Positions 5,049 to 59,791 of a stretch of DNA of 64,000 nt are shown here, in pieces. Each line of letters begins with the position of its first letter. The first letter of the stretch is position 1. Made by a program: the position numbers and the translations under genes. The notes under the pieces are model-generated. The model saw only the letters and a program-made list of their open reading frames with translations, was not told the origin of the DNA and did no database searches. This DNA is from a virus, in IMG/VR virus record IMGVR_UViG_3300046170_000347, positions 5,400 to 69,399 of that record; one strand, given 5' to 3'.

Positions 5049-5237
5049 ATGTATTGTAAATGTGGACAAACAGTGCATCCGGTGCGCTTAGAATTAGGAT
5101 ATAAAACATGCGTTTCATGTAGTACAACTCAAACGTACTCTTATGTACCTATCATAGAGCATAAAACAGGTAATACAATACAAATCGTCAGCCAAGAAGT
5201 AAGCGCATCAGTGCACAGAGCTTGGCGGCGTAAATGA
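5049..5237 (+). CDS. DksA/TraR-like C4 zinc-finger protein
   Basis: CKCG...RLELG..TCVSC pattern resembles the DksA/TraR Zn finger. Confidence 0.6.
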   Translation: MYCKCGQTVHPVRLELGYKTCVSCSTTQTYSYVPIIEHKTGNTIQIVSQEVSASVHRAWRRK

Positions 5238-5348
5238 TGGAAGCACCGTAATGGTCCATCAAATAGCTAGACGAGTAGCTTAATTAGGTTAAGACAGTAT
5301 CTCAGATTTATCTGTTTAAGTATCTTAACACATAAGTGAATAGCTAGC
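5235..5348 (+). ncRNA. Structured intergenic RNA candidate
   Basis: Helices TGATGGA/TCCATCA, GTTAAGA/TCTTAAC, CAGAT/ATCTG; no convincing ORF. Confidence 0.35.
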
Positions 5349-5350
5349 GG

Positions 5351-5445
5351 GAACTAGGTCAGGTAAGACGCGCACCGGTCAAAAGACAGTGGTGCACCGC
5401 GCTTAGGCTACCGACGGGTATGAGGTTCGAATCCTCACTAGTTAC
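5351..5445 (+). ncRNA. Anticodon-less tRNA-like RNA
   Basis: Acceptor AACTAG/CTAGTT, perfect T-arm TGAGG-TTCGAAT-CCTCA, 12-nt GTCAGGTAAGAC segment, long arm capped GTC-AAAA-GAC, extra TACC-GACG-GGTA hairpin. Confidence 0.7.
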
Positions 5446-5598
5446 AAATCGTACAGTATCACGGATTGCAGAGTAATTAACTGCATGCACGGTGGAAGTC
5501 CGACTGCGGATGTGATGAGTAATAATGCAAGTGTATGAGGTTCTTAGCCCTCCACTAAAAATACTCAAAGAGAATTTGCATAGATAACTGTACTTTTT

Positions 5599-5701
5599 GG
5601 GCGTGAAATGGTTAGACTATTGGAAGTTAGCGCGTAAATCTGCAAGACAGTAGCCCACTAACTCATATATAGTAACGCAGGTTCGACTCCTGCCACGTCC
5701 A
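5599..5701 (+). ncRNA. Minimal tmRNA-like RNA (tRNA-like domain with 27-nt loop)
   Basis: Acceptor GGGCGTG/CACGTCC with G3.U70 and A73; stemless loop AAATGGTTAGAC; helices ACTAT/ATAGT and AGTTAG/CTAACT; T-arm GCAGG-TTCGACT-CCTGC. Confidence 0.8.
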
Positions 5702-5706
5702 CTAAT

Positions 5707-5790
5707 AGAGAGATGGCAGATATGCAGTTCATGGCTTGTCCAACACAAACCCTAACGGGAAATCGAAGTGCTTCGTGGACACATCTCTCT
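5707..5790 (+). ncRNA. Structured RNA candidate (multi-branch hairpin)
   Basis: AGAGAGATG/CATCTCTCT, TGTCCA/TGGACA, CCC-TAAC-GGG, CGAA-GTGC-TTCG. Confidence 0.5.
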
Positions 5791-5803
5791 TATAATATTA
5801 CAT

Positions 5804-5876
5804 CGCGCTGTAGAGCAGTGGCCAGCTCGCAAGGCTCATAACCTTGAGGTCGTCGGTTCGAATCCGGCCAGCGCAA
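5804..5876 (+). tRNA. Initiator tRNA-fMet (CAT); CCA not encoded
   Basis: Full cloverleaf, C1:A72 mismatch, anticodon arm CAAGG-CTCATAA-CCTTG, GGTTCGAATCC T-arm. Confidence 0.93.
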
Positions 5877-5897
5877 CTAATTTTAAAACAAGAATAA

Positions 5898-6095
5898 ATG
5901 CCAAATATGAGTTATTGTCGGTTTGAAAACACCGTCACAGACATGAGAGATTGCATAAATGCGATCGAAGATCGAGAAACAGATGAGCTTAGCAACTATG
6001 AAGTTAATGCTCTTTCAAATTTTTTAGATCTTGCGAGAGAAATTACTAACCTCGAATATGAAATCGAAGAAATACTAGGTGAATATGACAGCTAA
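5898..6095 (+). CDS. Phage hypothetical protein (NMSYCRFENT type)
   Basis: ORF with N-terminal motif familiar from many phages; acidic. Confidence 0.75.
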   Translation: MPNMSYCRFENTVTDMRDCINAIEDRETDELSNYEVNALSNFLDLAREITNLEYEIEEILGEYDS

Positions 6096-6357
6096 AGTTA
6101 GACAAATGAAGAGTGTTAGATCAGGTAATCCTGCAGCTAATCAATTTATTATATACACTGACGAAGGTAATTACTTTCAAAGCTATGACAGCGTTATTGC
6201 TTTTAGAGGTGAGGACAATAAAATTACACTAGACGAGTACTATTGGGATTACTCTCGTACTACAAGTAAATACCGCAACCAGTTTTTAGGTGAAAGTATT
6301 GTAGATACAAGAGCTAAGATAGAATCAGGTGAGTATAAGCTAGCAGATCTTAATTAA
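6085..6357 (+). CDS. Phage hypothetical protein (FQSYDSVIA ... YSRTTSKYRNQF type)
   Basis: Coupled ORF; motif familiar from phage early regions. Confidence 0.75.
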   Translation: MTAKVRQMKSVRSGNPAANQFIIYTDEGNYFQSYDSVIAFRGEDNKITLDEYYWDYSRTTSKYRNQFLGESIVDTRAKIESGEYKLADLN

Positions 6358-7505: not shown

Positions 7506-7736
7506 ATGACAGAAGAAGAAATGGAAAACATAGCAAACCTAGTGGTACAAAAGCTAGTTAAGCTACAACAAGACGGTGAAATATACCTAGGCTTAGCACA
7601 AGAAGAGGTATTGCTTGCAGAAATAGCAAGACTTACTACCCTATTGTCTATGTATGAAGAGCGTGAACAGTATGAAGCTGCCGCTATTATACACAATAAA
7701 ATTAAAAACTTAGAATCTAAACTTAATAACATATGA
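7506..7736 (+). CDS. UVR (UvrB/UvrC coiled-coil) motif protein
   Basis: C-terminal EEREQYEAAAIIHNKIKNLE matches the UVR pattern. Confidence 0.65.
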   Translation: MTEEEMENIANLVVQKLVKLQQDGEIYLGLAQEEVLLAEIARLTTLLSMYEEREQYEAAAIIHNKIKNLESKLNNI

Positions 7737-8560
7737 TAAAACCAATGCTTGCACACAAAGTCGGTAAAAAAGAAGTCGACTGGTCTGCAAAGAATTTTAT
7801 ACAACCAAAGCTTGATGGCGTACGTTGTGTATTTACTAAGGTTGGTGCGTATTCTCGTACTGGCAAAGAATTTAAAAACGTAGCTCATCTTGAAGAAGAT
7901 CTTAAAGACTTTTTCTGGAATAACCCTAATGCTATACTTGACGGCGAGCTGTATAATCACGATCTAAAGCATGATTTTGAAAAGATCATATCTTTGGTCA
8001 GAAAACAAAAACCAACTGAAGACGACAGGTCTGAGGCTGCTAATCTTGTACAATATCACGTGTATGATACTATATGGCAAGATGTAACATATGAAGACAG
8101 ATACAATTGGTTAAGAACTAACTTACCTATTGCAAAAACTATGACATTAATCGCTAATACTACAGTTGATTGTATGGCTGAAGCTAAAACAATGCACAGT
8201 CTACATCTAGCTCAAGGCTACGAAGGCTCTATGCTACGTACTAATGGCTTGTATGAGCGCAAACGATCTTACAACTTACAAAAGTTTAAAGACTTCCACG
8301 ATACGGAAGCAACTATTACAGGATATGAAGAAGGTAAAGGTAAGCGACAAGGCACGCTTGGCAAGTTTCTGATGACAGATGACGAAGGTATACAGTTCGG
8401 TTGTCCACCGGGCAAAGGCTATACTTACAAGGATCTGGCAAACATGCTACTTAACATTCATGACTACATTGGTCAGCGTGCTACCTTTACTTATTTTCAA
8501 CGAACACAAGCAGGTTCTTACAGACACCCGCTATTTAAAACACTTAGAAACTATGAGTAA
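7733..8560 (+). CDS. ATP-dependent DNA ligase
   Basis: KLDGVRC, LDGELY, YHVYD, EGSMLR, QKFK motifs and C-terminal OB fold. Confidence 0.95.
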   Translation: MIKPMLAHKVGKKEVDWSAKNFIQPKLDGVRCVFTKVGAYSRTGKEFKNVAHLEEDLKDFFWNNPNAILDGELYNHDLKHDFEKIISLVRKQKPTEDDRSEAANLVQYHVYDTIWQDVTYEDRYNWLRTNLPIAKTMTLIANTTVDCMAEAKTMHSLHLAQGYEGSMLRTNGLYERKRSYNLQKFKDFHDTEATITGYEEGKGKRQGTLGKFLMTDDEGIQFGCPPGKGYTYKDLANMLLNIHDYIGQRATFTYFQRTQAGSYRHPLFKTLRNYE

Positions 8561-17987: not shown

Positions 17988-19711
17988 ATGTGGAACAATG
18001 AATGGAAAAAAGGAGAAGATTACCCTAAGTGGGGTGATACAGACGTATACAAGAAAACTATATCAGGCGGTTACTTACTTGAAGATGAAACGCCTCGTGA
18101 TGCGTACATGCGAGTTGCTAAAACAGGTTGCGCGTAGACTTTACAAACCTGAGATGGCCGGAGCGTTCTTTGATTATATTTGGAATGGTTGGTTGTGTCT
18201 GGCTAGTCCTGTGTTATCAAATACAGGGACTGATCGCGGTTTACCTATATCTTGCTTTGGCATTGATGTTGCAGACTCGATACAGGACATAGGGCATAAA
18301 AATTTAGAGATGATGCTACTCGCTAAGCACGGCGGTGGAGTTGGCATTGGTATTAATATGATTAGACCCGCCGGCGCTAAAATTACAGGCAATGGAACAA
18401 GTGATGGCGTTGTGCCGTTTTGTAAAATATACGATTCAACAATACTTGCCACTAATCAAGGATCTGTCCGACGAGGAGCTGCATCAGTTAATATCAACAT
18501 TGATCACCCCGATTTCGATGAGTGGCTCGAAATACGTGAACCCAAAGGAGACGTCAATCGTCAATCGCTTAACCTGCATCAGTGCGCTGTTGTCGGTGAT
18601 AAGTTTATGCGACGAATTGAGCAAGGAGATAGAGAAGCTAGAAAACGTTGGGGTAAATTACTTCAAAAGCGAAAAGCTACTGGAGAACCTTATATCTTAT
18701 TTAAGGGAAATACAAATAAGAATAACCCCAGATCATATAAAGACAACGGACTGAAAGTCCATATGACTAACATATGCTCTGAAATTACATTACATACAGA
18801 TGAGAACCACAGCTTTGTTTGTTGTTTGTCATCATTAAATTTAGCTAAATATGAAGAGTGGAAAGGTACAAACCTTATTTATGATGCGATATGGTTCTTG
18901 GATGGAGTCATGGAAGAGTTTATCCAAAGAGCTAAAGGCTTACGAGGTTTCGAGAACGCGGTTAGATCGGCTACAAAAGGCAGAGCCTTGGGGTTGGGAG
19001 TACTTGGTTGGCACACGTACTTGCAAGAAAAAAGTATACCGTTCGAGGGCTTACTTGCGCAGTTTGAAACTAGGAAGATTTTTAGTCAGATTAAAATTGA
19101 ATCTGAAAGAGCTAGTATGGCACTTGCAGAAACTTATGGCGAACCTTTGTGGTGTGCTGGAACTGGTATGCGCAATACTCATCTACGTGCTATTGCACCT
19201 ACTGTTAGCAACAGCAAACTTAGTGGCAATGTGTCGCCAGGCATTGAGCCGTGGGCTGCAAATGTTTTTACCGAGCAAAGCGCGAAAGGCACGTTCATAA
19301 GAAAAAATCCTACATTATTAAAACTATTACGAAAACTTAAAATAAATACAAATGAAACTTGGAGCAAGATTATGGCAGATGGTGGTAGTATTCAAGGTTT
19401 ATCTGAGCTTGACGGGGTTGTGGTTGGATCTCATGACGTACCGGCTAAAGACGTTTTTAAAACGTTTAAAGAGATAAATCAATTAGAACTAGTAAATCAA
19501 GCCTGGTATACGACAGCAGTATATAGATCAGTCTGTTAGTTTAAACCTAGCATTTCCTAGTATAGCTACGCCAAAGTGGATTAATCAGGTGCATATGTCA
19601 GCATGGAAGAAAGGTATTAAAACCTTGTACTATACTAGAACTGAATCAGTACTACGCGGTGATATAGCACAACAAGCTATGAGTGAAGATTGTATTGCCT
19701 GTGACGGATAA
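17988..19711 (+). CDS. nrdA: Ribonucleotide reductase class I alpha subunit (apparent frameshifts ~18126 and ~19503)
   Basis: PISCF, GGGVG, RRGA, TNICSEI, CCLSS, IAPTVS, KTLYY, C-terminal CIACDG. Confidence 0.95.
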
Positions 19712-22576: not shown

Positions 22577-25500
22577 TTAATTATTCATTAGTTCTAAAAT
22601 TTTTTCAACTCTATTTTTTTCATATCTAAGATCTCTTATTTCTTTTTTAGTAAGTCCAAACTTAGTTAACGTTTTTACTTGATCTGGTTTGTTTTCTGCC
22701 TTAATAGAATCAAACTGTCTTCTTAGTTTTTGTTCAGCGGTCTCTGTTGCGGCTTTAGGTTTAAGTGGAGGTTTAGGTTGAGGTGTAGGTTTTGTTTCAG
22801 TTGTGGGTTTTGTTTTTGTTTCCTCAGACTCTTCTGTTGGGCGCATTGGTATCCCGCTTTGTAGTTCAATTATTTTTTTAACTCTAGCATCTTCTTTACC
22901 TAACGCTTTAATTTGTTTCTTAGTAAGACCTAAATCTAAAAGCATATCTATTTGCTCTTGAGTTTTAGTATCTTTCTTCATTGTATCAAATTTCTTTTGC
23001 TCTATCTCTGCGGGCGTTGGATCTGCTACAGCATCCCAACCTCCATAATAAGGAAGACCAATATCATATGTTCCATAACCTGCTGCTAAAGATATTTTTT
23101 GCCACTCAGCTGTTTGCTCGCTTAGTATACCTCTTATGTTATTAGTTTTCTTAACAACACGATCTAAAGGTATATTAGTAAAAGCTGTAAATATCTGAGC
23201 ACCTGCTAAGTAAGCTGGGTTGTCTAGGCTAAAACCTTTTTCTTTCATTTCCTTAGCGTTCCAGCTAAAACTTTTTAAACCACCTACAATTTTTCTATAC
23301 TTAGAACTAATAGCCGGTGAAAAGCTTAGCGCTTCAATTGCGGCTTTTTCATACTCAGGTCTTTTCTTACCAGACTCTTCAATTATTTTTAGTACTGTAT
23401 TTTTAGCAGCAACCATAGCGTTACCTGCAATACCTAAACCTTTTAACTGAGAGTCAATCATGCCGTTAGCAACTCTAGTTATTTTCTTTTCGTTTCTAGC
23501 TTTTATCTTAGGATCTTTTTCGTCTTCATCGCTGCCAAAACCAATAGCAAATAAGGCTTGCTGTAGTGAATTAAATATTAAATTTTGTATAGCACCATAA
23601 TAAGCTATTTTAGATACATTTGTTTTCCAATCACCTCTGCCGTTTATAAGATCTTGAGCGGCTCTTTTTTGTATTCTAACATACTGCATCGGCGTGTTAG
23701 CCCAGTTAAGTATAACACGACCAGCACCAGACGCTTGCTGCATACTAATCTTAGAAGCGTCACTAGACTGTTGGCTTTCTTCTGCAACATCTTTAAAGTC
23801 TGCAAAAGCTTGTTGTTCAGCAAGTTCTGTGCTCATGCCTTCTTTGACATACTTTTTAATTCTGTTTCTATAAAAAGTAGAACCACCAGAAGCTATGGCA
23901 AAACTATCCGCGTATCTAGTAAGAACAAAACCTTTACTAAGTAAATAAGATATAGCTGCGTTTACTTTATTCTTAGAATCTTTTACAGCATCTGCTATTT
24001 CAGATTCACTTACATTTATTTTAAGTCCATTACGACGTTGCACTAAGTAATCAGAATTCATTAGTTTCATAAAGTCTCCCCAAAACTGTTTCTGATTTGC
24101 AAACGCTTTGCCTGCGGCTATAGGATTATTATCACCCCAATTTAAAAAGTTTACAGCAGATATAGTTTGAAGCAGTGCAGATCTAGTATTTAAAAACATT
24201 ACAGCACCAACAGAGTTGTTAGTCCAGTCTAATACCTTATTGGTTATTTCACTACCACCAATTGGTCTGTTACTGCCAGACTTCATTCTGCGAAGAGTAT
24301 CTTCTAAAGCTTTACGCCAGCGAGTACCATATGCAGCCTCCATTTTATTTAAGTTTTCAGGTGAAAATATAATATCTACATTTTCTCTAAAAGTCTTTTG
24401 ATATTCTGCTCTGTTTACCTTGTTTATACCACCTATAATATCTGTAGTTAAATTACCAGCTAGCCAGTCTTTACCAGGCTCTGGATACATTTTACCTTTT
24501 TGACTTACTATAAGTTGATCGGCAAACGTTTGAAGCTCAGCGCTATCAGTAACAAACTTATTTAATTTCGCTGCGTCTGCTTTTGATAGACCAGGTATTG
24601 ACATACCTTGTTTGGTCCACATATAAGTTCTAAGAGCATGCTGATATGTAAACTTACCTACACCAGTTTCTTTTTTAAGTGTAGTGGGTATAGTCTTATA
24701 CATAGACTTTAGCGCCATGAAATCATTGGCAGCAGATATCTTAGCTTGTATAGCTGAGTCTTCTGCTCTATTGTAAGGATCAATAAGATTGTTTTTAAGG
24801 AATTCAAAATGCGCCTCACCTTGCTTGCCTTTTCCTATCATTTTATACAATAAACCCTTAAAGTCTTCAGCTGATGAGGCCATTGTAAGCCAATCAAACC
24901 TACCTTTGTTTTGACCTAATGTTTTAGCTTTAGCAGCAGAGAAAGTTTTATAAGCTTCAATACCACTACTAGCTTCTATCATTTCGTTAGTTATAGTATT
25001 AAAAGTTTTAGCATTACTAAATTTAGCTTGTTGCACCTTGCCTTTAACATCAGCTTGATCTAATATTTCTTTGACAGCTTCTACATTTTTAAGCGCATCA
25101 TCAGCAAAATAAAAATCATTATAACCTTCAGATACTTTATCCATGATCCAGCGGCCTTTGGCACTAGCCTTGCCATCTGCTAAGCCAGTTATATTTTTTA
25201 AAGGTATATCAATACCTAGAGCTTTCATAAACTCTTTTATAGGCCCAGCAGCATCCTGAGGTCTAGCTGTTAATATAAATAAATCTTCTGTGCCTCTTTT
25301 TTCTGCTATTCTTTTCATCACATCAAACAAAGGTCCTTTTTTTCCATCAACTACTTTGCTAAAATCACTAAAATCAAACTTAGCACCTTCTTGTTCTAGC
25401 TGAGCTGATTTTTCTGCAAATTCTGCGGCATCTATTTTAAAAGTTTTGCCACTTGGAAAATCTTTTAAAACTCTTGCTTGCTGCTCTTCGTTTAAATTTT

Positions 25501-28500
25501 CAAAGTTTTGTTTAGAACTAGGCTTGTTTTCAAATTCTTTTTTAAATATTCTTCTAGCGGCAATATCAAGCATTTCTATATCAATTGGTCGACCTGGCAC
25601 TTCAACTAAAATTTTACTTTTCGTAATAGCCGCGGTGTAATCAAAATCAAATACTCTAATTTTCCTTTCTTTCTTAGGCACAGGCTTACCGTTCTCAATA
25701 TTTAAAGATCTTGATAATTCTAACGCTGCATCAGCTCCTCTTAAATTCTCAACAACAGCTTCATTTGTAGCAGCTTTATCAAATCTAAAAGAACTAGAAG
25801 CTAGGTCATTCATTTTTTCTGCACTCTTAGCTTTTGGATCTACAACTCTTTGTAGCTCTTGATAGTCTTTTTTAGCTCTTTCTCTTGTTATTTCTCCTGT
25901 TAAAACTTTTGTTATTAATTCATTAACAACTTTAGAGTTTTCTAATATCTCAAAAGGTGTTGTTACTTTTTTAGATTTACCTACAAAAAACTCACCGATG
26001 GATTTTTGTGTTTCAGTAAACGCATAAGCAAAAGGATCAATAGTATTTTCAATAGTATACCTAATAAGAGACGCTGTGCCTTGTGGTAAAAAATCTAACT
26101 TACCTTCTCTTACGGCTTTAAGAACTTTATCATAGTATTCAGGAGGTAAATTTTTATCAAGAAAAACAGATAAAGCTTTATCGTCGTTATATCTTAAAGC
26201 TCCTTGACCATATATAGCTTTTATATCTTTAAACTCTTCTTTGACAGTTCCTCTTTTGGCTGCTTCTAAAAGCATTAATCCTATTTTATTAACAGGAGCC
26301 ATATGCTCTTCTTTTACTTTAACAGAAACTGCCTTGCCAGTTAAAGGATTTATAGGATAAAAAACAAGTGCTGCTCCAAATCTATTTAAATGACCTTGAC
26401 CTTTTGCGCTGTCTCTTAAAAACTGTTCAAATATTCTATACTTGCCTTTACCTTCTTTTGTTTTTAGAAACTCTTGTACTTTTAAATAAAAATTTTCTAT
26501 TTCATCTAATCTAAACTTATTGTTTCTAAGAATACTACCATCTCTTAAACCTTTATTGACTTTACCAGCTAAAAACATTTCAGTGGCGGCATATGTAAAT
26601 CTAGTTGCTTTATTATCTCTATTGCTTTTTCCAAACAAGCTTTCAAAATTTGGAATATCTCTAAAAGTTAAATCTCTTCCACCTGTCATGCTTTGCTCTA
26701 CATATCTTTTACCTTCAGGGTAGAATTCAAAAAATGATTTAAAATCTTTTACAGCCGCTTTGTACTCAGGAGATTTTGTATCTATAATAGTATAACCTTT
26801 TAATGCACCTGTTTTTTTAGACTTTTCAAAAATTTTATCTCTAACAAAAGATGGTTGAGTATATTTTAACTCTTCGCGCTCTTTACCTGTTGTAATCTTA
26901 GGCACTTTTTTATCTTCACTAAACTTAGCGCCTAGTTTTGCTCTTTGACCTGCATCACCTTTTAAGTATTCTAAAGCATTGTTTTTAAAATAAGAGGCTA
27001 ATACTACTTTTAGTGGTTGAGATCTTCTATATAAAGGCACTGGCCTACCGTTTTCAAGTGGATTAAACTCTATAGACTTACCGTCATAACCTTCTACTGT
27101 TATATTTTTACCTGAAATTATATCTCTAAGTGTTTTTAAAGATCCAGGTTTTAAATCGCCTTTGTCATTTAATAAAGCTTTACCTACTTTTGTTTGCTTA
27201 AATCCAGGTGTATTAATTCTAGAGTGTATAGCTTGTAGATTGTCTAATATAAATTGCTTAGCTCTAGTCGCTGCAGCTTTTTCACCAGCAGGAAAATTCC
27301 TATTAGGTATCATTAAAGCTTTTATACCAGCCTCAGACTCAATACCGAGCATCTTAGCATAAAACTCTGCTAATGATCTAGGTGTTTTTAAGTCTTTATA
27401 TTTATTAATATCTACATCTTTAAAGCTGTCTAGTACTTGAGTTTTTAAAGCCTCTTGTATTGCTTGCTCAGGTGTCTGGCCTTCTTTTACTTCAATGCCT
27501 AGGTTTTCTACAAACTCAGGTTTCATTTTAACTTCAGAGGGCAATCGCTTAGTTGCAGTTACTTTTTCTTCTTCTTTAATTGTTTCCTCAACAGCGACAT
27601 CTTTTAGACCAACTAAATCATCTACAGAAGTATCAAACTCTTTACCTAAATTTCTATCAGCTATTTCTATATATCTTTTAAATCCAGTTTTAGTAGAAAA
27701 ACTATTATTTAAAAACAAAGATAATTCTTTTACTTTTTCACCCTTTTCAACTTTAGCAGCATAGTCATTAATAACGTCTAGCATACCTCTTTTGCCTGTC
27801 ATTATTTCGTCGACAAGTAATTCCTCATCATATCGTGGTCGGTTTTTAAATCTTCTTGCCAAAGATGTAGCTGTAGGTCTTAACAATTCTAGTATTTCAA
27901 AACTTGCGTCTTTACCTTTTTCAGCAAATAATCTATTAACGGTGTTTGAATCTTTTTTAGCTAAACTAAACCTTCCTGATGGAGTAGCTAATTCTAAGTT
28001 TTCTGCAGTTGTTTCAACTTCAACTTTTTTAGGTGTTTCTTTTATTTCAACCCTGCCAAGATCTTGGGCTTTGAGCATTTCAAAAATACCTTTACCTGTT
28101 TCAGGATTTACTTCTATATTGGGTAAGAAGCTTTTAAACGCAGGTACTAAACCAGCTAAGCCTTCACCGAAACTTCTGCTAAATTCTATTTCACCTCTTT
28201 TAATAAGCTCAGCTAGTACAGTTATGTTTTCTTCGTACCATTTTTCTTTAGATTGACCTACGTCATATCTAGAGGCTAACTCTTCGTCTAATACTTGTTT
28301 TTGTCTTGGTGTAAGTTTACCTAATACTCCATCGATCATTTCTATACCTTCAGGTGTTACATTGCCTTCAGCGTCTTTAAAAGAATCTTTTAATATTGAG
28401 TGAGGTATTTCATGAGTAACTGGTGTAAAGTTTCTTTGTTGTAAAGCAAACTCCCTATTAATAACTTTATTACCGTCTTTATCTGTAAAAGCTATTTTAC

Positions 28501-31500
28501 CTTTGACATCTTCTTTTTTAAATCCAGACTCATCATAGCGTTTTTGAAACTCTTCTGGTGTTCTAGCTTCAACTACTTTACCTTCAGAAGGATCTGCTTG
28601 CTTCACATCTTTCTCATAAGCCGTAATAGCAGCACCTTGTATTTCTGACTGTATGTTATTATACAGTTCACCGCCTTTTATATACTTACTTAGCTCTTGC
28701 TCGGCGCTTTTTATAGCTTCTTTGTTTTCAAGAAGTTCAGATTCTGATAAATTAGTTTTATCTAAATTTTTTAATCTATAAATTCTTTCGTTAAGCTCTT
28801 GTTTTTTTAATAAAAACTCTCTAGCGTTTTGTCTAGCAGTTGTTCCTTTTGGTGATACAAACTCTACAGGATTCAAGGGTTGTAGACCATACGGTGTTAA
28901 CATAAAAGACTTACCATTTAGTTGAGCTTCTATTAAAGATTCGTTTAATATTAAATTTTGTAAATAAGAATCATTGACAGAATTTTTTTGTATACCTAAT
29001 CTTTTATAAAGCATGCCCACGCCATCTAGCCCATAGTAAGACAATACTTCTCCATCTCTATCGTTTAGTTTTTCTCCGTTTTTTATTTTTTGAGATACTA
29101 AATAAAACTCAGATTCTCTTGGAGCATTGCCTGCATTTTTCTCTGCTTGAATTAGTTCATAAGCAGCATTGACAGCTATTTGAGTATCAACTACTCTGTA
29201 ATCTTCTTTTAACCTTTTAAATTCAGCGTCAGCCTCTTGTTTAGTTATCTTACCTTCTCTTTTTCTTTTTAGTAGATCGTTTACTTTATTTTCAAAAGCG
29301 TCATTAAGTTCTGCCTGCGCATTTTCTTGATCAACTTCAAATCCTTCTTTTTCTAATAATCCACCTTCTTTTACTTTCACGCCTAATCTTTGAGCAGATT
29401 CTTTAGCTTCTAAATCTAATCTACCGCTAGTTTTAGCATTTATAACATCGCTTTTAAATTCTTTGCCAATGCTGCGCATGTTAGGAACAGACTTAGTTAA
29501 AGTCCCAGCTATAATCATTTTTATAGTTTCTACAGCTTGAGTATGCAATGAAACAGTTAAATTACCTTGCTCGTCAAATAAACCTCCGGCAGCTACAGCG
29601 CTTCCAAACTGATATGTTGTTGCACCACCAAATGCACTACCAACAGATCTTGAAACTCTTCTATAAGTGTTAGGAGCGTATTTTGTTAAAGCATTTACAA
29701 CTGGAGAGAAGATTCTACCTATTTTAGATTTACCTAAAAATTTAACAAAAGGATCATACATAGCATGACCTACGGCTAATGAAGATCCAAAACCTGCTGA
29801 ACTAGGTAAAGATTCTAAGTCAAAATCTCCTGTTCTATATTGGCCAACTATGCTACCACCAGTAAAAGTTACGGCTTGACCAAGAACTGAGTTTACTGTT
29901 TTAAAAGCAGGTAGCGCGTATGGTATTTTTGAAAATCTTTTACTTTGAGTAGCTAGTTTATTTGCCCATTTTTGTGTTTTACCTACAATATTACCACTAC
30001 CTCTAGTGAATAAATATACATCACCCATCCAAGCTAATAGATCTGGTGCAGTAGCACCAATTTCTTGACCTGTGTTTTCTGGTGATATAAAACCACCTCC
30101 CGGTATTTGTATAGCTAAAGAGTTATCTAGAGCTTCTTTGCTTGGAGTAAAACCATTAGTTTGCATCCAATTTAAATAATTATCTTTAACTTGTCTATCT
30201 GTAGGAGCCGCGTCACCGCCTAATAAATTAACCGTAGCAGCGTAAAATTCATCAGTAAAACCTCCTTGTTCTGTTGTTAAAGGATCTCTATCTAGCTGAA
30301 AAGCTCTGTTTACTATTTTATAATTTTCTACAGCGTCATTAAAAGCTTTTATAAGAGGATGACCATCTTCGTCGTTTATAGCTCTAACGTCTAATTTTTC
30401 TAAATAACCAGGTAGTCTACCATTTAAAGCTATTTCCTCTACTAAGCTAGATATATCTTTAGTCCATTCAAATCCTTTTTGACCTTTATAACCTCCATTT
30501 TTACTAAAAAAACTAGGATCATTTGCGGCGCCACTGTTTGCTTTATCCCAGTTATATATTTCTTGAGCTAATCCAACAATTTTAAAATAATCATTATTTA
30601 GTTTTTGCTTTAAAACATCTTTTTCTGTTGTATCCGCTAATTTTTTAGCTTTTTGAAAAAGTTCTATTTCAGATTCTTGTACTTTATCGAGGTCTATGTT
30701 TTTTATCTCATCTCCAAAAAATAATCTTTCGCCATAATTTTCTTTAGAAGCCTCTTTGTCTTGCTCTTCCGGGCTTAATTCTAAAAACTTTAATTCATTT
30801 TTAGTAAGAAACTGCTTGCCATCTTTTAAAACATCGTCAATACTTACGTCATTAAATTGTAAATTAGCTTGAGATCCTAAGTAATCAGTTCTATAATTTT
30901 GCACACTAGGAATACTTATAGCCTTAGATCTATCGTTTCTTTCTTTTTCAGCTTCTCTAGTACTTTTAATTGTAGGAAAATAACTACTTCCTACAGAGTT
31001 ACCGTATTCATCTAAAGACGCTTGTATAGCAAGTTCATTGTTTGTTTCCCATACTTGATTGCCTAGTTGATTGTTTAATTCTACAGGATCATATTTTTGA
31101 ATTAAAACCTCATCTAAAACAGTAGTAGTTCCTTCCATTGGCATAGAACTATAATTTATTATCTCAGCGTTAGGATTTGATTTAACATAATCAGCAACCG
31201 TTGAAACGTTTTCAAAGCCAGGTTGATTACTGTCAATCATTTGTTGAATTTGATTAAAAGTAAATTCTTTTGAAGATCCTTCTTTAAACCTTGTTCCTTT
31301 TGGAGGTTGAATTAAAACTCTAGTATCATATTTAATTTCTCCACTTTTTATTGCTTTAATGCCTTCTTCCTGCGATTGTTTTTTAGATTCAAAATCTTTT
31401 TTAAGTTTATTGTATTCTGCCTTTTTATTTTCGTAATCTTCTAAAGATAAACCGCCTCTAAACAAGTCATCAGATATGTTTCTACCTATGTCATCTAAGC

Positions 31501-31771
31501 TTTGGTTATAAGGATTTGTAAATGGCAATACTGATCCGCCAATTCCAAATTCGCCAATCCCGCTTAAAGCTGCTTGCACGTTTGGTGTTGCCGTTGCTAC
31601 AGTCGTGCTCTCCTCTGTAACAACAGGCGGCTTTCCCTCTTCTACTACTTCAACAGTTTCAGACTTGGGCGCGTGTGTTTGTTTCCACTCATTAGCTCTT
31701 GCTATTTTCTCATCGCGAGTTAAACTTTGTGGAAGTTCAGCTATGTATTCTTCTAATGTAATATGACTCAT
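22577..31771 (-). CDS. Giant 3064-aa putative internal/ejected polyvalent protein (zincin, sigma-region-2-like, HAD domains)
   Basis: Follows tail genes; HEIPH ~aa1120; HAD motifs FDFDYT/ILTAR/K/FADD ~aa2040-2235; duplicated C-terminal GLTKK repeat. Confidence 0.8.
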   Translation of the reverse strand: MSHITLEEYIAELPQSLTRDEKIARANEWKQTHAPKSETVEVVEEGKPPVVTEESTTVATATPNVQAALSGIGEFGIGGSVLPFTNPYNQSLDDIGRNISDDLFRGGLSLEDYENKKAEYNKLKKDFESKKQSQEEGIKAIKSGEIKYDTRVLIQPPKGTRFKEGSSKEFTFNQIQQMIDSNQPGFENVSTVADYVKSNPNAEIINYSSMPMEGTTTVLDEVLIQKYDPVELNNQLGNQVWETNNELAIQASLDEYGNSVGSSYFPTIKSTREAEKERNDRSKAISIPSVQNYRTDYLGSQANLQFNDVSIDDVLKDGKQFLTKNELKFLELSPEEQDKEASKENYGERLFFGDEIKNIDLDKVQESEIELFQKAKKLADTTEKDVLKQKLNNDYFKIVGLAQEIYNWDKANSGAANDPSFFSKNGGYKGQKGFEWTKDISSLVEEIALNGRLPGYLEKLDVRAINDEDGHPLIKAFNDAVENYKIVNRAFQLDRDPLTTEQGGFTDEFYAATVNLLGGDAAPTDRQVKDNYLNWMQTNGFTPSKEALDNSLAIQIPGGGFISPENTGQEIGATAPDLLAWMGDVYLFTRGSGNIVGKTQKWANKLATQSKRFSKIPYALPAFKTVNSVLGQAVTFTGGSIVGQYRTGDFDLESLPSSAGFGSSLAVGHAMYDPFVKFLGKSKIGRIFSPVVNALTKYAPNTYRRVSRSVGSAFGGATTYQFGSAVAAGGLFDEQGNLTVSLHTQAVETIKMIIAGTLTKSVPNMRSIGKEFKSDVINAKTSGRLDLEAKESAQRLGVKVKEGGLLEKEGFEVDQENAQAELNDAFENKVNDLLKRKREGKITKQEADAEFKRLKEDYRVVDTQIAVNAAYELIQAEKNAGNAPRESEFYLVSQKIKNGEKLNDRDGEVLSYYGLDGVGMLYKRLGIQKNSVNDSYLQNLILNESLIEAQLNGKSFMLTPYGLQPLNPVEFVSPKGTTARQNAREFLLKKQELNERIYRLKNLDKTNLSESELLENKEAIKSAEQELSKYIKGGELYNNIQSEIQGAAITAYEKDVKQADPSEGKVVEARTPEEFQKRYDESGFKKEDVKGKIAFTDKDGNKVINREFALQQRNFTPVTHEIPHSILKDSFKDAEGNVTPEGIEMIDGVLGKLTPRQKQVLDEELASRYDVGQSKEKWYEENITVLAELIKRGEIEFSRSFGEGLAGLVPAFKSFLPNIEVNPETGKGIFEMLKAQDLGRVEIKETPKKVEVETTAENLELATPSGRFSLAKKDSNTVNRLFAEKGKDASFEILELLRPTATSLARRFKNRPRYDEELLVDEIMTGKRGMLDVINDYAAKVEKGEKVKELSLFLNNSFSTKTGFKRYIEIADRNLGKEFDTSVDDLVGLKDVAVEETIKEEEKVTATKRLPSEVKMKPEFVENLGIEVKEGQTPEQAIQEALKTQVLDSFKDVDINKYKDLKTPRSLAEFYAKMLGIESEAGIKALMIPNRNFPAGEKAAATRAKQFILDNLQAIHSRINTPGFKQTKVGKALLNDKGDLKPGSLKTLRDIISGKNITVEGYDGKSIEFNPLENGRPVPLYRRSQPLKVVLASYFKNNALEYLKGDAGQRAKLGAKFSEDKKVPKITTGKEREELKYTQPSFVRDKIFEKSKKTGALKGYTIIDTKSPEYKAAVKDFKSFFEFYPEGKRYVEQSMTGGRDLTFRDIPNFESLFGKSNRDNKATRFTYAATEMFLAGKVNKGLRDGSILRNNKFRLDEIENFYLKVQEFLKTKEGKGKYRIFEQFLRDSAKGQGHLNRFGAALVFYPINPLTGKAVSVKVKEEHMAPVNKIGLMLLEAAKRGTVKEEFKDIKAIYGQGALRYNDDKALSVFLDKNLPPEYYDKVLKAVREGKLDFLPQGTASLIRYTIENTIDPFAYAFTETQKSIGEFFVGKSKKVTTPFEILENSKVVNELITKVLTGEITRERAKKDYQELQRVVDPKAKSAEKMNDLASSSFRFDKAATNEAVVENLRGADAALELSRSLNIENGKPVPKKERKIRVFDFDYTAAITKSKILVEVPGRPIDIEMLDIAARRIFKKEFENKPSSKQNFENLNEEQQARVLKDFPSGKTFKIDAAEFAEKSAQLEQEGAKFDFSDFSKVVDGKKGPLFDVMKRIAEKRGTEDLFILTARPQDAAGPIKEFMKALGIDIPLKNITGLADGKASAKGRWIMDKVSEGYNDFYFADDALKNVEAVKEILDQADVKGKVQQAKFSNAKTFNTITNEMIEASSGIEAYKTFSAAKAKTLGQNKGRFDWLTMASSAEDFKGLLYKMIGKGKQGEAHFEFLKNNLIDPYNRAEDSAIQAKISAANDFMALKSMYKTIPTTLKKETGVGKFTYQHALRTYMWTKQGMSIPGLSKADAAKLNKFVTDSAELQTFADQLIVSQKGKMYPEPGKDWLAGNLTTDIIGGINKVNRAEYQKTFRENVDIIFSPENLNKMEAAYGTRWRKALEDTLRRMKSGSNRPIGGSEITNKVLDWTNNSVGAVMFLNTRSALLQTISAVNFLNWGDNNPIAAGKAFANQKQFWGDFMKLMNSDYLVQRRNGLKINVSESEIADAVKDSKNKVNAAISYLLSKGFVLTRYADSFAIASGGSTFYRNRIKKYVKEGMSTELAEQQAFADFKDVAEESQQSSDASKISMQQASGAGRVILNWANTPMQYVRIQKRAAQDLINGRGDWKTNVSKIAYYGAIQNLIFNSLQQALFAIGFGSDEDEKDPKIKARNEKKITRVANGMIDSQLKGLGIAGNAMVAAKNTVLKIIEESGKKRPEYEKAAIEALSFSPAISSKYRKIVGGLKSFSWNAKEMKEKGFSLDNPAYLAGAQIFTAFTNIPLDRVVKKTNNIRGILSEQTAEWQKISLAAGYGTYDIGLPYYGGWDAVADPTPAEIEQKKFDTMKKDTKTQEQIDMLLDLGLTKKQIKALGKEDARVKKIIELQSGIPMRPTEESEETKTKPTTETKPTPQPKPPLKPKAATETAEQKLRRQFDSIKAENKPDQVKTLTKFGLTKKEIRDLRYEKNRVEKILELMNN

Positions 31772-55089: not shown

Positions 55090-55500
55090 TTACGCGCTGT
55101 ATGTACAGGTTTTAAACTGATTGTATATAGCTGGTTGTGTAACTAAAATACTACCTTTTTGACCTGATTGAGCAGCTGGTGCTTGCAATACAGTTACTGG
55201 TGGTACTAAAGTTGAAACAACTCCTCCTGGATTTGCTACTAAAGCAGCGTTTACAGCGTCAGCTAATTGCTTCTCTCTAGTTGCAGCTGTAAATCCTGTA
55301 GAACCATCTACTGGAGCATCAACAACAATTGCATATGTTCCTGGAGTTCCGCTGTTCATGGTTATGGTTGCAGTTGTTATAGCTGATGAAGTAGCGCCTG
55401 ATGATGCTACACCAACTCCTGCTATACCATCTATTGGTATTAATGTTTCAATGCCGTCACCTTCTACAGGTCCTGCTTTTACTTTTAAAAATTTTGCCAT
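55090..55500 (-). CDS. Probable capsid decoration/structural protein
   Basis: Ala/Thr/Gly-rich; ALVANPGGV motif. Confidence 0.6.
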   Translation of the reverse strand: MAKFLKVKAGPVEGDGIETLIPIDGIAGVGVASSGATSSAITTATITMNSGTPGTYAIVVDAPVDGSTGFTAATREKQLADAVNAALVANPGGVVSTLVPPVTVLQAPAAQSGQKGSILVTQPAIYNQFKTCTYSA

Positions 55501-57997: not shown

Positions 57998-58257
57998 AAT
58001 ACAACGACTATATCACCTGACTTTATAACGTGATAAGATTGTTTATCAACTTCTATTTTGTGACCAGCGTGTCGATCAAAATATATTACATCTCTTGGTT
58101 TAACACCTGCTACTTCACTTCCTGCAGAAACTACGGTAGCTTTAATGTAGCGTATGTCGTCTCTTTGGTTTTCAGCAAGAAGTAGACCACCTTCTGTTTT
58201 AGTAGTACCCTCTCTTGCTTTGTTTATTATTAAGTTTCTACCTATTGCTTTCATCAA
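57994..58257 (-). CDS. groES: Co-chaperonin GroES
   Basis: KTEGGLLL, VVSAG, VKPRDVIYF, DIVVV. Confidence 0.9.
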   Translation of the reverse strand: MMKAIGRNLIINKAREGTTKTEGGLLLAENQRDDIRYIKATVVSAGSEVAGVKPRDVIYFDRHAGHKIEVDKQSYHVIKSGDIVVVL

Positions 58258-59791
58258 CTCTTAAATTATTAATTACACAATCAGTAGATAATATTGTTGT
58301 TGCTACAGAGGCTGCATTTTGAAGAGCGCTCTTGGTGACGAGTAGTGGATCTATTATACCCGACTCGATCATATTTACCATTTTTCCTGTAACCACATTG
58401 TAGCCTTGTCCTTTGATAGTTGGTGTTTTTAAGTTGTCAACACCAGCGTTTTCAAGTATAGTTTTAAAAGGTGCTTTAATAGCTTCTAATAAAACTGTTT
58501 CGCCTTTAGACTTAGCTGTTATATTTGTTGCAGCGTTTAATAGAGCAATACCACCACCAGGAACAATCCCTTCTTTAATAGCAGCTTTAGTAGCACAGAT
58601 AGCATCTTCTACTCTATCTGTTTTTTCTTTTAATTCTATTTCTGAATTAGCACCTACTTTTACAATAGCTATTTTAGCAGACAGCATTGCTAATCTTTTT
58701 TCTAACTTTATAATTTTGTTAGAGTTTTTTTCTTTTAAAAGCTTTTTATTTATTTCTTTAATAACGCTTTTAACTTCCTTGTTTGAGTCTTCTATTTGTA
58801 ATATAGTTTCTTGATGCGATGTAACACTTTTTAAGCATGCACCTAAATAATCCAAGGTTATCATATCCATGTCGTCACCAAGATCTTCGTTTACAATAGT
58901 AGCACCTGTTAGTAATGAAAGATCTTGAAGCATCTGTTGTTTGTTAACTCCGTATGTTGGAGCATCAATAACGTTTACTTTTATATTACCTTTCATTTTA
59001 TTCATAGCTAGAGCTGATAAAACACCCTGTTCTAAATCGCCTATAATAAGCAAGGGTTTATTGTTTTTTATTACGTGCTCTAGCACCGACTGTATTTGTC
59101 TTATTGTTTCAACCGGTGACTCAAGTATTAATACTAGAGGATTTTCTAGTTCTGCGGTCTTACTAGCTTGATTAGTTATAAAGTGAGAGTTTTTTAAACC
59201 TTTATCATATTGCACACCATCTATAACTTCTACTTTAGTATCGCCTTCAGTTGTTTCAAGCATAACAACGCCTGTATTATCTACGGCTCTAAAAGCATCT
59301 GCTATAAGTTTACCAAGCGCAGGTTCGTTGTTTGTAGATATAGTAGCTATGTTGTCTATCATATCGCCTTCTACGTCTACTTTAAGTAGCTTTAAATAAC
59401 TAACTACTTTATCAACTGCTGAGTTAATACCTTCTTTTAACTCTCTTGCGTTTGTTTTATCAACTACTTTGTAAGCTTCTTCAAGTATTGCATGGGCAAG
59501 TACTGTGGCTGTAGTTGTGCCGTCGCCAGCTTCTTGCACTGTTTTGCGCGCTGCTTCTTTCAGAAGCGTGGCGCCCATATTCTCTACAGGATCTCGCAGT
59601 ATAATAGAATCTGCGACTGTAACTCCGTCTTTTGTAATAACAGGTCTACCTGTATTATCTTCAAGTATAACGCATTTGCCGCTAGCCCCGAGCGTGGAGC
59701 TAACAGCTTGCGTTAGTTTTTCAATTCCTTTAAATACATTATCTCTGGCTTCAATACCAAAGTTAAGGTTCTTGACTATTGCGTCTGACAT
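58238..59791 (-). CDS. groEL: Chaperonin GroEL
   Basis: ITKDGVTVA, AGDGTTTATVLA, GIVPGGG, GIIDP; lacks GGM tail. Confidence 0.97.
   Translation of the reverse strand: MSDAIVKNLNFGIEARDNVFKGIEKLTQAVSSTLGASGKCVILEDNTGRPVITKDGVTVADSIILRDPVENMGATLLKEAARKTVQEAGDGTTTATVLAHAILEEAYKVVDKTNARELKEGINSAVDKVVSYLKLLKVDVEGDMIDNIATISTNNEPALGKLIADAFRAVDNTGVVMLETTEGDTKVEVIDGVQYDKGLKNSHFITNQASKTAELENPLVLILESPVETIRQIQSVLEHVIKNNKPLLIIGDLEQGVLSALAMNKMKGNIKVNVIDAPTYGVNKQQMLQDLSLLTGATIVNEDLGDDMDMITLDYLGACLKSVTSHQETILQIEDSNKEVKSVIKEINKKLLKEKNSNKIIKLEKRLAMLSAKIAIVKVGANSEIELKEKTDRVEDAICATKAAIKEGIVPGGGIALLNAATNITAKSKGETVLLEAIKAPFKTILENAGVDNLKTPTIKGQGYNVVTGKMVNMIESGIIDPLLVTKSALQNAASVATTILSTDCVINNLRVDESNR

Follow-up and report, generated by a model that had tools for sequence, protein, structure and literature searches.

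Only one phage has so far been described with a transfer-messenger RNA (tmRNA) reduced to its tRNA-like domain (TLD), a form in print since 2009/2014. Mycobacterium phage DS6A is listed as "TLD only" by Hudson, Lau and Williams (PMC4131195), who state, citing Mao et al. 2009, that a molecule of this kind strongly inhibits tmRNA in Escherichia coli whether it is chargeable or not, perhaps by titrating SmpB. A tmRNA database paper of 2025, for which RefSeq is the only viral input, repeats that account (PMC11915505), and between them the two papers offer two readings of the DS6A form: rescue of ribosomes without tagging and an inhibitor that diverts SmpB. PMC3895274 credits Shimizu and Ueda 2006 with the in vitro finding that a TLD-only tmRNA serves as acceptor in peptidyl transfer. 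The window analyzed here is a 64,000-nucleotide (nt) stretch covering positions 5400-69399 of the virus record IMGVR_UViG_3300046170_000347, a genome of 69,399 bases that is complete by CheckV and has a G+C content of ∼34%. At positions 5599-5701, on the plus strand, it carries a 103-nt element that a sequence-only reading of the window had treated as unprecedented: a phage mini-tmRNA with a three-codon reading frame ending without a degron. Comparison identifies the element as the gene for a tag-less tmRNA reduced to its TLD and descended from a tmRNA of the Bacteroidota type. DS6A is its precedent, and what the window adds is a large new family of this already published kind, with dozens of lineages and a mosaic middle.

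The features of a tmRNA TLD that the sequence-only reading had noted are all present in the element, and all lie on the plus strand. GGGCGUG (5599-5605) and CACGUCC (5694-5700) form a 7-bp acceptor stem in which G3 (5601) and U70 (5698) make a G.U wobble pair, followed by the discriminator A73 (5701). In alignment to the Rfam tmRNA consensus, the next 11 nt, AAAUGGUUAGA (5606-5616), are a D-loop analogue without a D-stem, with GG at 5610-5611 and the equivalent of E. coli G19 at 5615. The P2a helix at the elbow pairs CUAU (5617-5620) with AUAG (5669-5672), the second strand being located by covariance model R1 and by covariation. The linker UAAC (5673-5676) places A-C before the T-stem, at 5675-5676, where E. 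coli has A334-C335, and the T-arm GCAGG/UUCGACU/CCUGC (5677-5693), with 5 bp and a loop of the GUUCRANUC type, is aligned in the same way by the Rfam tmRNA model and by R1. CCA is not encoded. The 3' trailer is CUA (5702-5704); the same CTA follows A73 in nearly all relatives as well as the neighboring tRNA-Met gene, and CCA would be added after processing.

Beyond the TLD, the element folds into one hairpin, with 55 nt between the P2a strands. This variable middle (5621-5668), delimited by folding and by comparisons, consists of an internal loop, a 6-bp P2b helix (5625-5630 with 5658-5663) that appears in the single-sequence fold only, and a 27-nt loop (5631-5657). Pseudoknot PK1, the pseudoknot ring and helix 5 of tagging tmRNAs were not found in the alignment or in the fold. 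The gene is phage encoded, with a complete TLD, adjacent ends and a short hairpin in place of the message part, as in DS6A. The single-sequence fold of the element (−29.9 kcal/mol; z, −2.32) was equaled by 4 of 200 shuffles, a moderate result, so that the evidence for structure rests mainly on comparison.

We then compared the element with the Rfam tmRNA model (RF00023; gathering score, 47 bits). Model positions 1-374 align to 5599-5704, 59 nt standing in for 326 model positions, at a score of 34.2 bits (E of 5.6e-12 in a search of 801 nt and 1.2e-13 in the 69,399-base genome). The TLD lies well outside what chance alone would produce. A match to both ends only had been predicted and was obtained, though under the cut-off. 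Within the Rfam clan the tmRNA model beats the tRNA model at this position, and R1 scores the element at 75.4 bits. Four syntenic homologues of 78 to 82 nt exceed the RF00023 cut-off, at 69.4 (locus L184), 63.9 (L205), 60.8 (L199) and 53.1 bits (L175), and descent from tmRNA is secure because they do so. In L184, L205 and L199, the three scanned members of the 78-nt GGGGGUG type, 12 P2 pairs align to RF00023. The D-loop of the 78- to 82-nt homologues, of the GACCUGGUUUUGAC type, resembles those of the tmRNAs of two Bacteroidetes metagenome-assembled genomes (MAGs), which score 142 and 174 bits, encode tags ending in YALAA and come from MAGs that both hold such phage contigs; it is also like that of the tmRNA which Cellulophaga phages phi38:1 and Calle_2 carry in full length.

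Other identities were considered for the element and rejected. ARAGORN does not call it with default settings, and Rfam at the gathering threshold lists only the tRNA at 5804-5876, which means for annotation that TLD-only genes of this family escape both programs. With relaxed thresholds ARAGORN found no tmRNA at 80% and, at 70%, a "permuted" call at 153-818 of the sub-sequence that is meaningless; its intron mode proposed a tRNA-Tyr(ata) with a 21-nt intron, which was discarded for its poor D-arm. A two-piece or permuted tmRNA was likewise set aside, as the tmRNA_permuted model reaches 11.8 bits (E of 5.4) on the T-arm only and the acceptor strands stand in standard order. A tRNA-Ala would share G3.U70, A73 and the T-arm, and the element does lie in a small-RNA cluster near a tRNA gene, but a tRNA-Ala has a D-stem and an anticodon arm. 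The element has neither, ARAGORN makes no such call, and Rfam keeps no tRNA match there.

The DS6A element could be verified at 28478-28560 of JN698994.1 (tmID 11587 in the tmRNA Website). It shares with the window element the 7-bp acceptor with G3.U70, A73 followed by CUA, the stemless GG...GAC D-loop, P2 with a short hairpin, the AC linker, the T-arm, the lack of a reading frame and of pseudoknots, its residence in a phage and a score just under the RF00023 cut-off (43.2 bits, against 34.2 for the window element). DS6A differs in that its element is 83 nt long, GC rich and the single reported case, from an actinobacterial siphovirus, whereas that of the window has 103 nt and belongs to a marine family. 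Their sequence relationship is limited to common tmRNA features, and the reduction to a TLD probably took place independently in the two. A full-text search, with subscription journals and supplements outside its scope, returned no description of the marine family.

Compared with the standard tmRNA of RF00023, the element keeps the acceptor, D-loop, P2a and T-arm but lacks helix 5, every pseudoknot and the tag frame with its resume and stop codons; a lineage-specific hairpin of 55 nt stands in for ∼300 nt. Full-length phage tmRNAs of 360 nt are found in phi38:1 (NC_021796.1, 26803-27164; 87.6 bits) and Calle_2 (MT732433.1, 42950-43311; 86.6 bits); "one tmRNA gene" is noted for Calle by Bartlau et al. 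(PMC8776804). That of phi38:1 shares the trailer CUAA with the element. Both phages are relatives of the window phage by portal protein (34% identity), and one broad phage lineage therefore includes the reduced gene as well as a phage tmRNA of full length. The tag that ARAGORN predicts for the phi38:1 and Calle_2 tmRNAs has 22 residues and an end unlike the host-type ...YALAA.

To delimit the family, we searched for the first 19 bases exactly, which gave 14 stretches in IMG/VR, and for the T-arm with the acceptor left free, which gave at least 116. Among the matches listed, 117 T-arm matches included 105 with a pairing 5' strand, 94 of them unique. The pattern family drawn from the matches listed comprises 55 unique sequences (59 loci) with a stemless D-loop and a GGGCGUG-type acceptor, 68 to 185 nt long (median, 100); the family counts exclude the remaining unique T-arm matches, which are ordinary tRNAs or something else. 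Model R1, built on 20 family members, finds 63 copies, 61 of them distinct, in the 61 sources searched. As a sample fetched by patterns is biased by them, a second sample was collected blind to the RNA, with the DNA ligase gene ∼2 kb downstream of the element (7733-8560; Pfam) as anchor. Seventy loci were fetched, 50 of them with at least 4.9 kb upstream, and 40 of these 50 contigs hold a copy on the same strand, 1.6 to 3 kb upstream of the ligase gene (39 found by R1 at E ≤ 0.01 and one, L175, by Rfam). The ligase-anchored copies fall into three subtypes, which combine acceptor GGGCGUG with T-stem GCAGG, GGGAGUG with GGCGG, and GGGGGUG with GACAG or GAGAG. The comparisons show that the family has been kept in a large marine group of uncultured phages whose relatives are podoviruses of Flavobacteriia. 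Until now a TLD-only phage tmRNA meant one mycobacteriophage and one heterologous test and could pass for a decayed gene; in the marine family the same reduction is seen in a gene that most phages of a widespread group conserve in synteny.

The element is not an assembly artefact such as the deletion that the sequence-only reading had named as a possible refutation. An independent DNA virome contig of 403 nt covers 5451-5852 with no other letter and one gap, and at least half of the sampled words of 5200-6100 are present in 18 runs from 15 marine studies. Contigs of three RNA libraries from three studies also cover the element without internal differences (X14, 5586-5922; X17, 5447-5717; X18, 5580-5717). 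They prove presence in the libraries, not transcription, and carry no information on transcript ends or strand; two of them end at 5717, but with strain variants setting in at 5728 no inference on ends was drawn.

We next examined which nucleotides are under selection. Pair 3:70 is G.U in 59 of the 61 distinct pattern-fetched copies and in 39 of the 42 distinct ligase-anchored sequences, the rest having A-U. In the ligase-anchored sequences, the adjacent acceptor pair 4:69 is CG in 20, GC in 13 and AU in 8, and T-stem pairs 2 to 4 covary, pair 2 being CG in 18, AU in 13, GC in 9 and UA in 2. That a wobble is retained next to pairs that change from one Watson-Crick type to another indicates that the wobble as such is selected for, and G3.U70 is the alanine identity element read by alanyl-tRNA synthetase (AlaRS) (PMC8363625). 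The discriminator A73 is kept in 60 of the 61 copies. All four P2a pairs have changed on both sides, also in the ligase-anchored set. In the pattern set, double-sided changes in P2a number 121 cells in the model-fitted alignment, against 34 ± 5 after shuffling (0 of 500 shuffles reached this value), and sliding one strand by 1 to 3 columns lowers pairing from 97.5% to 39 to 51%. RNAalifold missed P2a on a plain MAFFT alignment because of the alignment register; the helix was supplied by hand and then tested, and this alignment still gives 27 cells against 9.7 ± 2.7, again with 0 of 500 shuffles reaching it.

In the D-loop, G12, G13 and G17, the last being the G19 equivalent, are conserved in 58, 51 and 58 of the 61 copies; in the linker A76, A77 and C78 are each kept in 60, A77-C78 corresponding to A334-C335. 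According to PMC8363625, G19 is required for SmpB binding in E. coli tmRNA, G19 and A334-C335 are SmpB contact nucleotides, and A334 lines the pocket of SmpB Trp122, whose other two nucleotides are A15 and U17. Selection acts on features of the acceptor, the G.U pair, the D-loop and the T-arm, and is visible on exactly those nucleotides that AlaRS and SmpB read. Together, these results demonstrate a real, tmRNA-derived gene that is under selection and has no conserved message. They also bear out the reading of the element as a phage-borne tmRNA reduced to its TLD with the alanine identity pair retained.

The selected features are those read by RNase P, the CCA enzyme, AlaRS, EF-Tu and SmpB: the tRNA shape would serve RNase P and the CCA enzyme, the acceptor and T-arm would serve EF-Tu, and the G19 and A334-C335 equivalents would serve SmpB. 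On this ground we favor, at about an even chance, a model in which the RNA, once alanylated and bound by the SmpB of the host, competes at stalled ribosomes with the host's own tmRNA, no tag being made. It would be transcribed in the small-RNA cluster with the early or middle genes of the plus strand, trimmed like a tRNA, given its CCA and charged with alanine by the host AlaRS through G3.U70 and A73. Host SmpB would then bind at the elbow formed by D-loop and linker, and EF-Tu would deliver the Ala-TLD to stalled ribosomes with an empty A site, where it would accept the nascent chain. Lacking a resume codon, a frame and pseudoknots, it would give rise to no degradation tag; host tmRNA would be outcompeted for SmpB and for stalled ribosomes, ssrA tagging would be suppressed, and back-up factors of the host would resolve the ribosome. 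That the RNA is charged, is bound by SmpB, enters the ribosome and benefits the phage is what we infer. The phage genome contains no SmpB, no RF-1/ArfB-type domain and no peptidyl-tRNA hydrolase, so the host factors would be used. The two functions that the sequence-only reading had offered, ribosome rescue without proteolytic tagging and inhibition of host trans-translation by sequestering SmpB, coincide with the literature readings of the DS6A form (PMC4131195, PMC11915505), and that part of its proposal stands; for this element both functions are inferred, and the ribosome may be either freed (rescue without tagging) or held (inhibition).

A rival possibility is that the RNA is purely a sponge for SmpB, perhaps also for RNase P, the CCA enzyme or EF-Tu, which need be neither charged nor taken into the ribosome. 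The inhibition described in PMC4131195 on the authority of Mao et al., with chargeable and nonchargeable molecules alike, would be expected of a sponge, as would the conservation of the G19 and A334-C335 equivalents and the lack of a phage-encoded SmpB. A sponge, however, needs no G.U pair, and the retention of G3.U70 in both samples while pair 4:69 and the T-stem vary in Watson-Crick type argues against mere titration, as does the constancy of A73. We therefore consider the sponge unlikely.

Several observations weigh against the charged-competitor model. The E. coli inhibition, being independent of chargeability (PMC4131195), fits the sponge equally well. The equivalents of A15 and U17 in the Trp122 pocket differ in the element (U14 and A16 in the Rfam consensus alignment), and SmpB binding may thus be altered. 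The acceptor stem is identical in 48 of the 55 unique sequences of the window subtype among the matches listed, which possibly indicates another partner. The element fails the RF00023 threshold; so do all 10 type-I relatives with an RF00023 match (31.5 to 40.4 bits), and 6 of the 16 type-I loci scanned have no tmRNA match at E ≤ 0.001. No copy was found by R1 (E ≤ 10) or Rfam (E ≤ 0.01) in the captured stretch of 10 of the 50 ligase-anchored contigs, so the gene is dispensable or placed elsewhere in those phages. The RNA-library contigs bear the genomic CUA trailer, so that they cannot reveal a processed, CCA-tailed RNA, and DNA carry-over is possible. Finally, the mosaic and mobile middle described below falls outside a model in which the TLD alone competes.

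The question of whether a TLD alone can release a stalled ribosome also arises for the tag-less tmRNAs of organelles, and the marine family bears on it. Tag-less mitochondrial tmRNAs co-occur with SmpB, and forms of ∼65 bp without a coding sequence (CDS) are described from plastids (PMC11915505). Like the element, the CDS-less tmRNAs of jakobid and other mitochondria and of Mallomonadaceae plastids have no tag frame and are conserved nonetheless, and by analogy they suggest that a TLD alone can be useful. They differ in being mostly permuted or two-piece and in serving the organelle's own ribosomes, whereas the virus supplies its RNA to a host with a complete tmRNA of its own. As the sister lineage Callevirus retains a full-length phage tmRNA, the full-length, 78-nt and 65- to 185-nt forms make up a natural comparative series on what a virus gains by entering or jamming host ribosome rescue.

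The headline of the sequence-only reading was the frame GCA AGA CAG TAG (5642-5653), encoding Ala-Arg-Gln-stop in the 27-nt loop. A working miniature tmRNA, in which the ribosome would resume on this GCA, add Ala-Arg-Gln and stop, can draw on the presence of the frame in L108 as well as in the window, and natural tags as short as 2 residues are present in the tmRNA database (PMC11915505). L108, however, is simply 94.6% identical to the window over the whole element. Among the matches listed (55 unique), the frame occurs in these two only, all other lineages lacking it, and in 9 of the 55 the stretch from D-loop to T-arm contains not a single GCN codon; the GCA...stop for which homologues were to be checked is thus not conserved. 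In the 78-nt forms the loop is 15 nt long and contains no stop codon. Neither a pseudoknot nor a single-stranded run precedes the codon, and the loop is closed by the 6-bp helix. No resume codon with a conserved tag frame and stop, as in tagging tmRNAs, was found. We regard a working miniature tmRNA as very improbable; the frame is, from this comparison, coincidental and no more than chance would give, and the caution that it might be so, voiced when it was first described, was the correct reading.

The frame lies in a part of the gene that is not alignable between lineages. Among 88 unique sequences, the middles fall into 39 versions of 17 to 137 nt that share no 10-mer, no 6-mer is enriched in them (maximum count, 4; 95% null value, 6), and the version of the window is common only to L108 among the matches listed. 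Parts of these middles also occur elsewhere. We found 51 runs of 14 to 52 nt, identical to the middle of one phage, outside any mini-tmRNA in 34 loci, and 35 of the 51 lie within 400 nt of the locus's own mini-tmRNA copy. Single 14-mers are at chance level (23 to 36 matches with shuffled middles), and only the 11 runs of at least 30 nt (30 to 52 nt) were used as evidence of module movement. These runs in the cluster, together with a neighboring tRNA-like element of the same design, argue that hairpin modules move within the small-RNA cluster. Some contigs carry two mini-tmRNA copies with unlike middles a few hundred bases apart, namely L010/L196 (341-434 and 825-914 of L010) and L159 (5388-5475 and 5545-5647).

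Such variability raises the possibility that the conserved ends are a tRNA-like chassis that secures processing or stability or acts as a decoy, for example for a host nuclease directed at tRNA or tmRNA, while the fast-changing middle hairpin does the work and trans-translation is not the target. The 39 unrelated middles, the 11 long stretches recurring outside another phage's mini-tmRNA, the closeness of most runs to the gene and the 11 unique versions of the neighboring tRNA-like element at 5346-5447 would all fit a chassis. The shortest members, on the other hand, have 65 to 70 nt with a hairpin of only 17 to 22 nt, so the domain works without cargo. No motif is common to the middles, the single 14-mer matches are what chance gives, and the conserved positions are those important for AlaRS and SmpB. 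We think the chassis quite unlikely. A further pair of ideas is speculative and, in our judgment, improbable: either the TLD is a chassis and the hypervariable P2 insert its payload, or re-entry of Ala-TLD with SmpB adds alanines without a template. In the former, modules may move between the P2 helix of the mini-tmRNA, the neighboring tRNA-like RNA and free-standing positions in the cluster, and each lineage would display a different, fast-evolving hairpin on an RNA that is processed, stabilized and perhaps carried to the ribosome like a tRNA. In the latter, repeated entry could build a run of alanines on stalled chains, a phage-driven counterpart of alanine tailing.

Finally, the element could be a dead remnant, either of a decayed tmRNA or tRNA-Ala gene or of a host ssrA attachment site in a temperate phage. 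An ssrA 3' end is known from phages that use this gene as their integration site (PMC9004378, PMC11590407), and the window copy does score below the RF00023 cut-off. Both halves of the TLD are nevertheless present and pairing, the covariation indicates structural selection, and the genome contains no integrase. In the genomes of 185,579 species, the 25 bases of the 3' end occur in just 12 stretches, which all lie on MAG contigs; the matches there are mini forms (69 to 103 nt) or ordinary tRNAs of 74 nt, and no full-length bacterial tmRNA is among them. An ssrA-derived attachment site was rejected on these grounds: the 5' half is there, the integrase is not, and the 3' end belongs to no full-length tmRNA of the species-representative genomes. 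Nor does ARAGORN find a tRNA, its intron-mode tRNA-Tyr(ata) having the poor D-arm mentioned above. A dead remnant is barely credible.

Cultured phages were also searched. BLAST of the element against 50,697 phage records returned only a similarity of ∼30 nt in T-arm and acceptor. Among the candidates inspected, a match in Vibrio phage BUCT194 is a tRNA-like RNA with A3-U70 and a D-arm and is not a TLD; that of Alcaligenes phage vB_Af_QDWS595 (OK149171.2, ∼55259-55332) has a tmRNA-like 3' end but an imperfect 5' acceptor strand and was also rejected. The 3' end of the latter, an N4-like phage, is canonical, with GGAC, T-arm, acceptor strand and ACCA, and four further weak R1 matches lie nearby. 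A genuine, unannotated TLD-only gene is present in a cultured actinophage, Microbacterium phage Gack (PP978884.1, 39854-39942; L127, 1501-1589), between tRNA-Asn and tRNA-Gln; it has the acceptor GGGCCUG/CAGGUCC with G3.U70 and A73 and scores 52.3 bits with R1. In cultured relatives of the window phage (Flavobacterium phage elemoE; Cellulophaga phages phi38:1, phi46:3, phi19:3 and Calle_2; Tenacibaculum phage Gundel_1; and the spring-water podovirus MW202828), R1 gave nothing above 27 bits, and the matches inspected are tRNAs or other tRNA-like RNAs.

Judging from the relatives of the phage, its host probably belongs to the Flavobacteriia: the phage terminase is 43% identical to those of Elemovirus (Flavobacterium phages), its portal protein is 34% identical to that of phi38:1, and all 87 phage records matched in the cultured collection have Flavobacteriia hosts or none assigned. 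Pfam searches of the 10 flanking open reading frames (ORFs) identified the DNA ligase only, and PHROGs searches of 10 large ORFs identified structural, packaging, ribonucleotide reductase and GroEL families; neither search provided a partner for the RNA. The genome encodes a GroEL-type chaperonin (58238-59791, minus strand; phrog_5725, E of 1e-132), the large subunit of ribonucleotide reductase (17998-19539, plus strand) and, at 22577-31771 on the minus strand, an ORF of 3064 residues without a PHROG match.

The element is part of a cluster of small RNAs on the plus strand. The only canonical tRNA, a tRNA-Met(CAU) found by ARAGORN and Rfam, is encoded 103 nt downstream of it (5804-5877) and has the C1xA72 mismatch atop the acceptor stem that is a hallmark of bacterial initiator tRNA. 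Same-strand tRNAs were found by ARAGORN within 500 nt in 8 of 55 family loci, and the same-strand tRNAs of the family loci are tRNA-Met in all cases but one, tRNA-Met being the sole tRNA of most relatives. A second tRNA-like RNA lies upstream of the element (5346-5447). It has a 6- to 8-bp acceptor-like helix with A3-U70 and not G.U, a D-loop-like GG...GAC, a long hairpin, a small extra hairpin and the T-arm GAGG-UUCGAAU-CCUC; it has no Rfam match at E ≤ 10, and its ends are conserved and its middle variable, the 11 unique versions coming from 14 loci. Next to it, a noncoding stretch of 58 nt (5451-5508) recurs at 100% identity in L064, at 94.6% in L108 and at 90% in L032, even though two of these loci, L064 and L032, have mini-tmRNA middles that bear no relation to that of the window; the stretch folds no better than shuffles. 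Between the mini-tmRNA and tRNA-Met, a structured element (5707-5790) forms a 9-bp long-range helix, AGAGAGAUG/CAUCUCUCU; its fold has a z of −2.66, with 1 of 200 shuffles as good, and it is 91.7% identical in L153. Far upstream of the cluster, a weak tRNA-like R1 match at 2508-2575 (17.1 bits; E of 0.05) shows the T-arm GGAGG-UUCAAUU-CCUCU and a 3' end ...CUCCA. The cluster starts with a 28-nt motif (5261-5288) that recurs at 100% identity in L120, L011 and L004 and may be a regulatory or promoter element.

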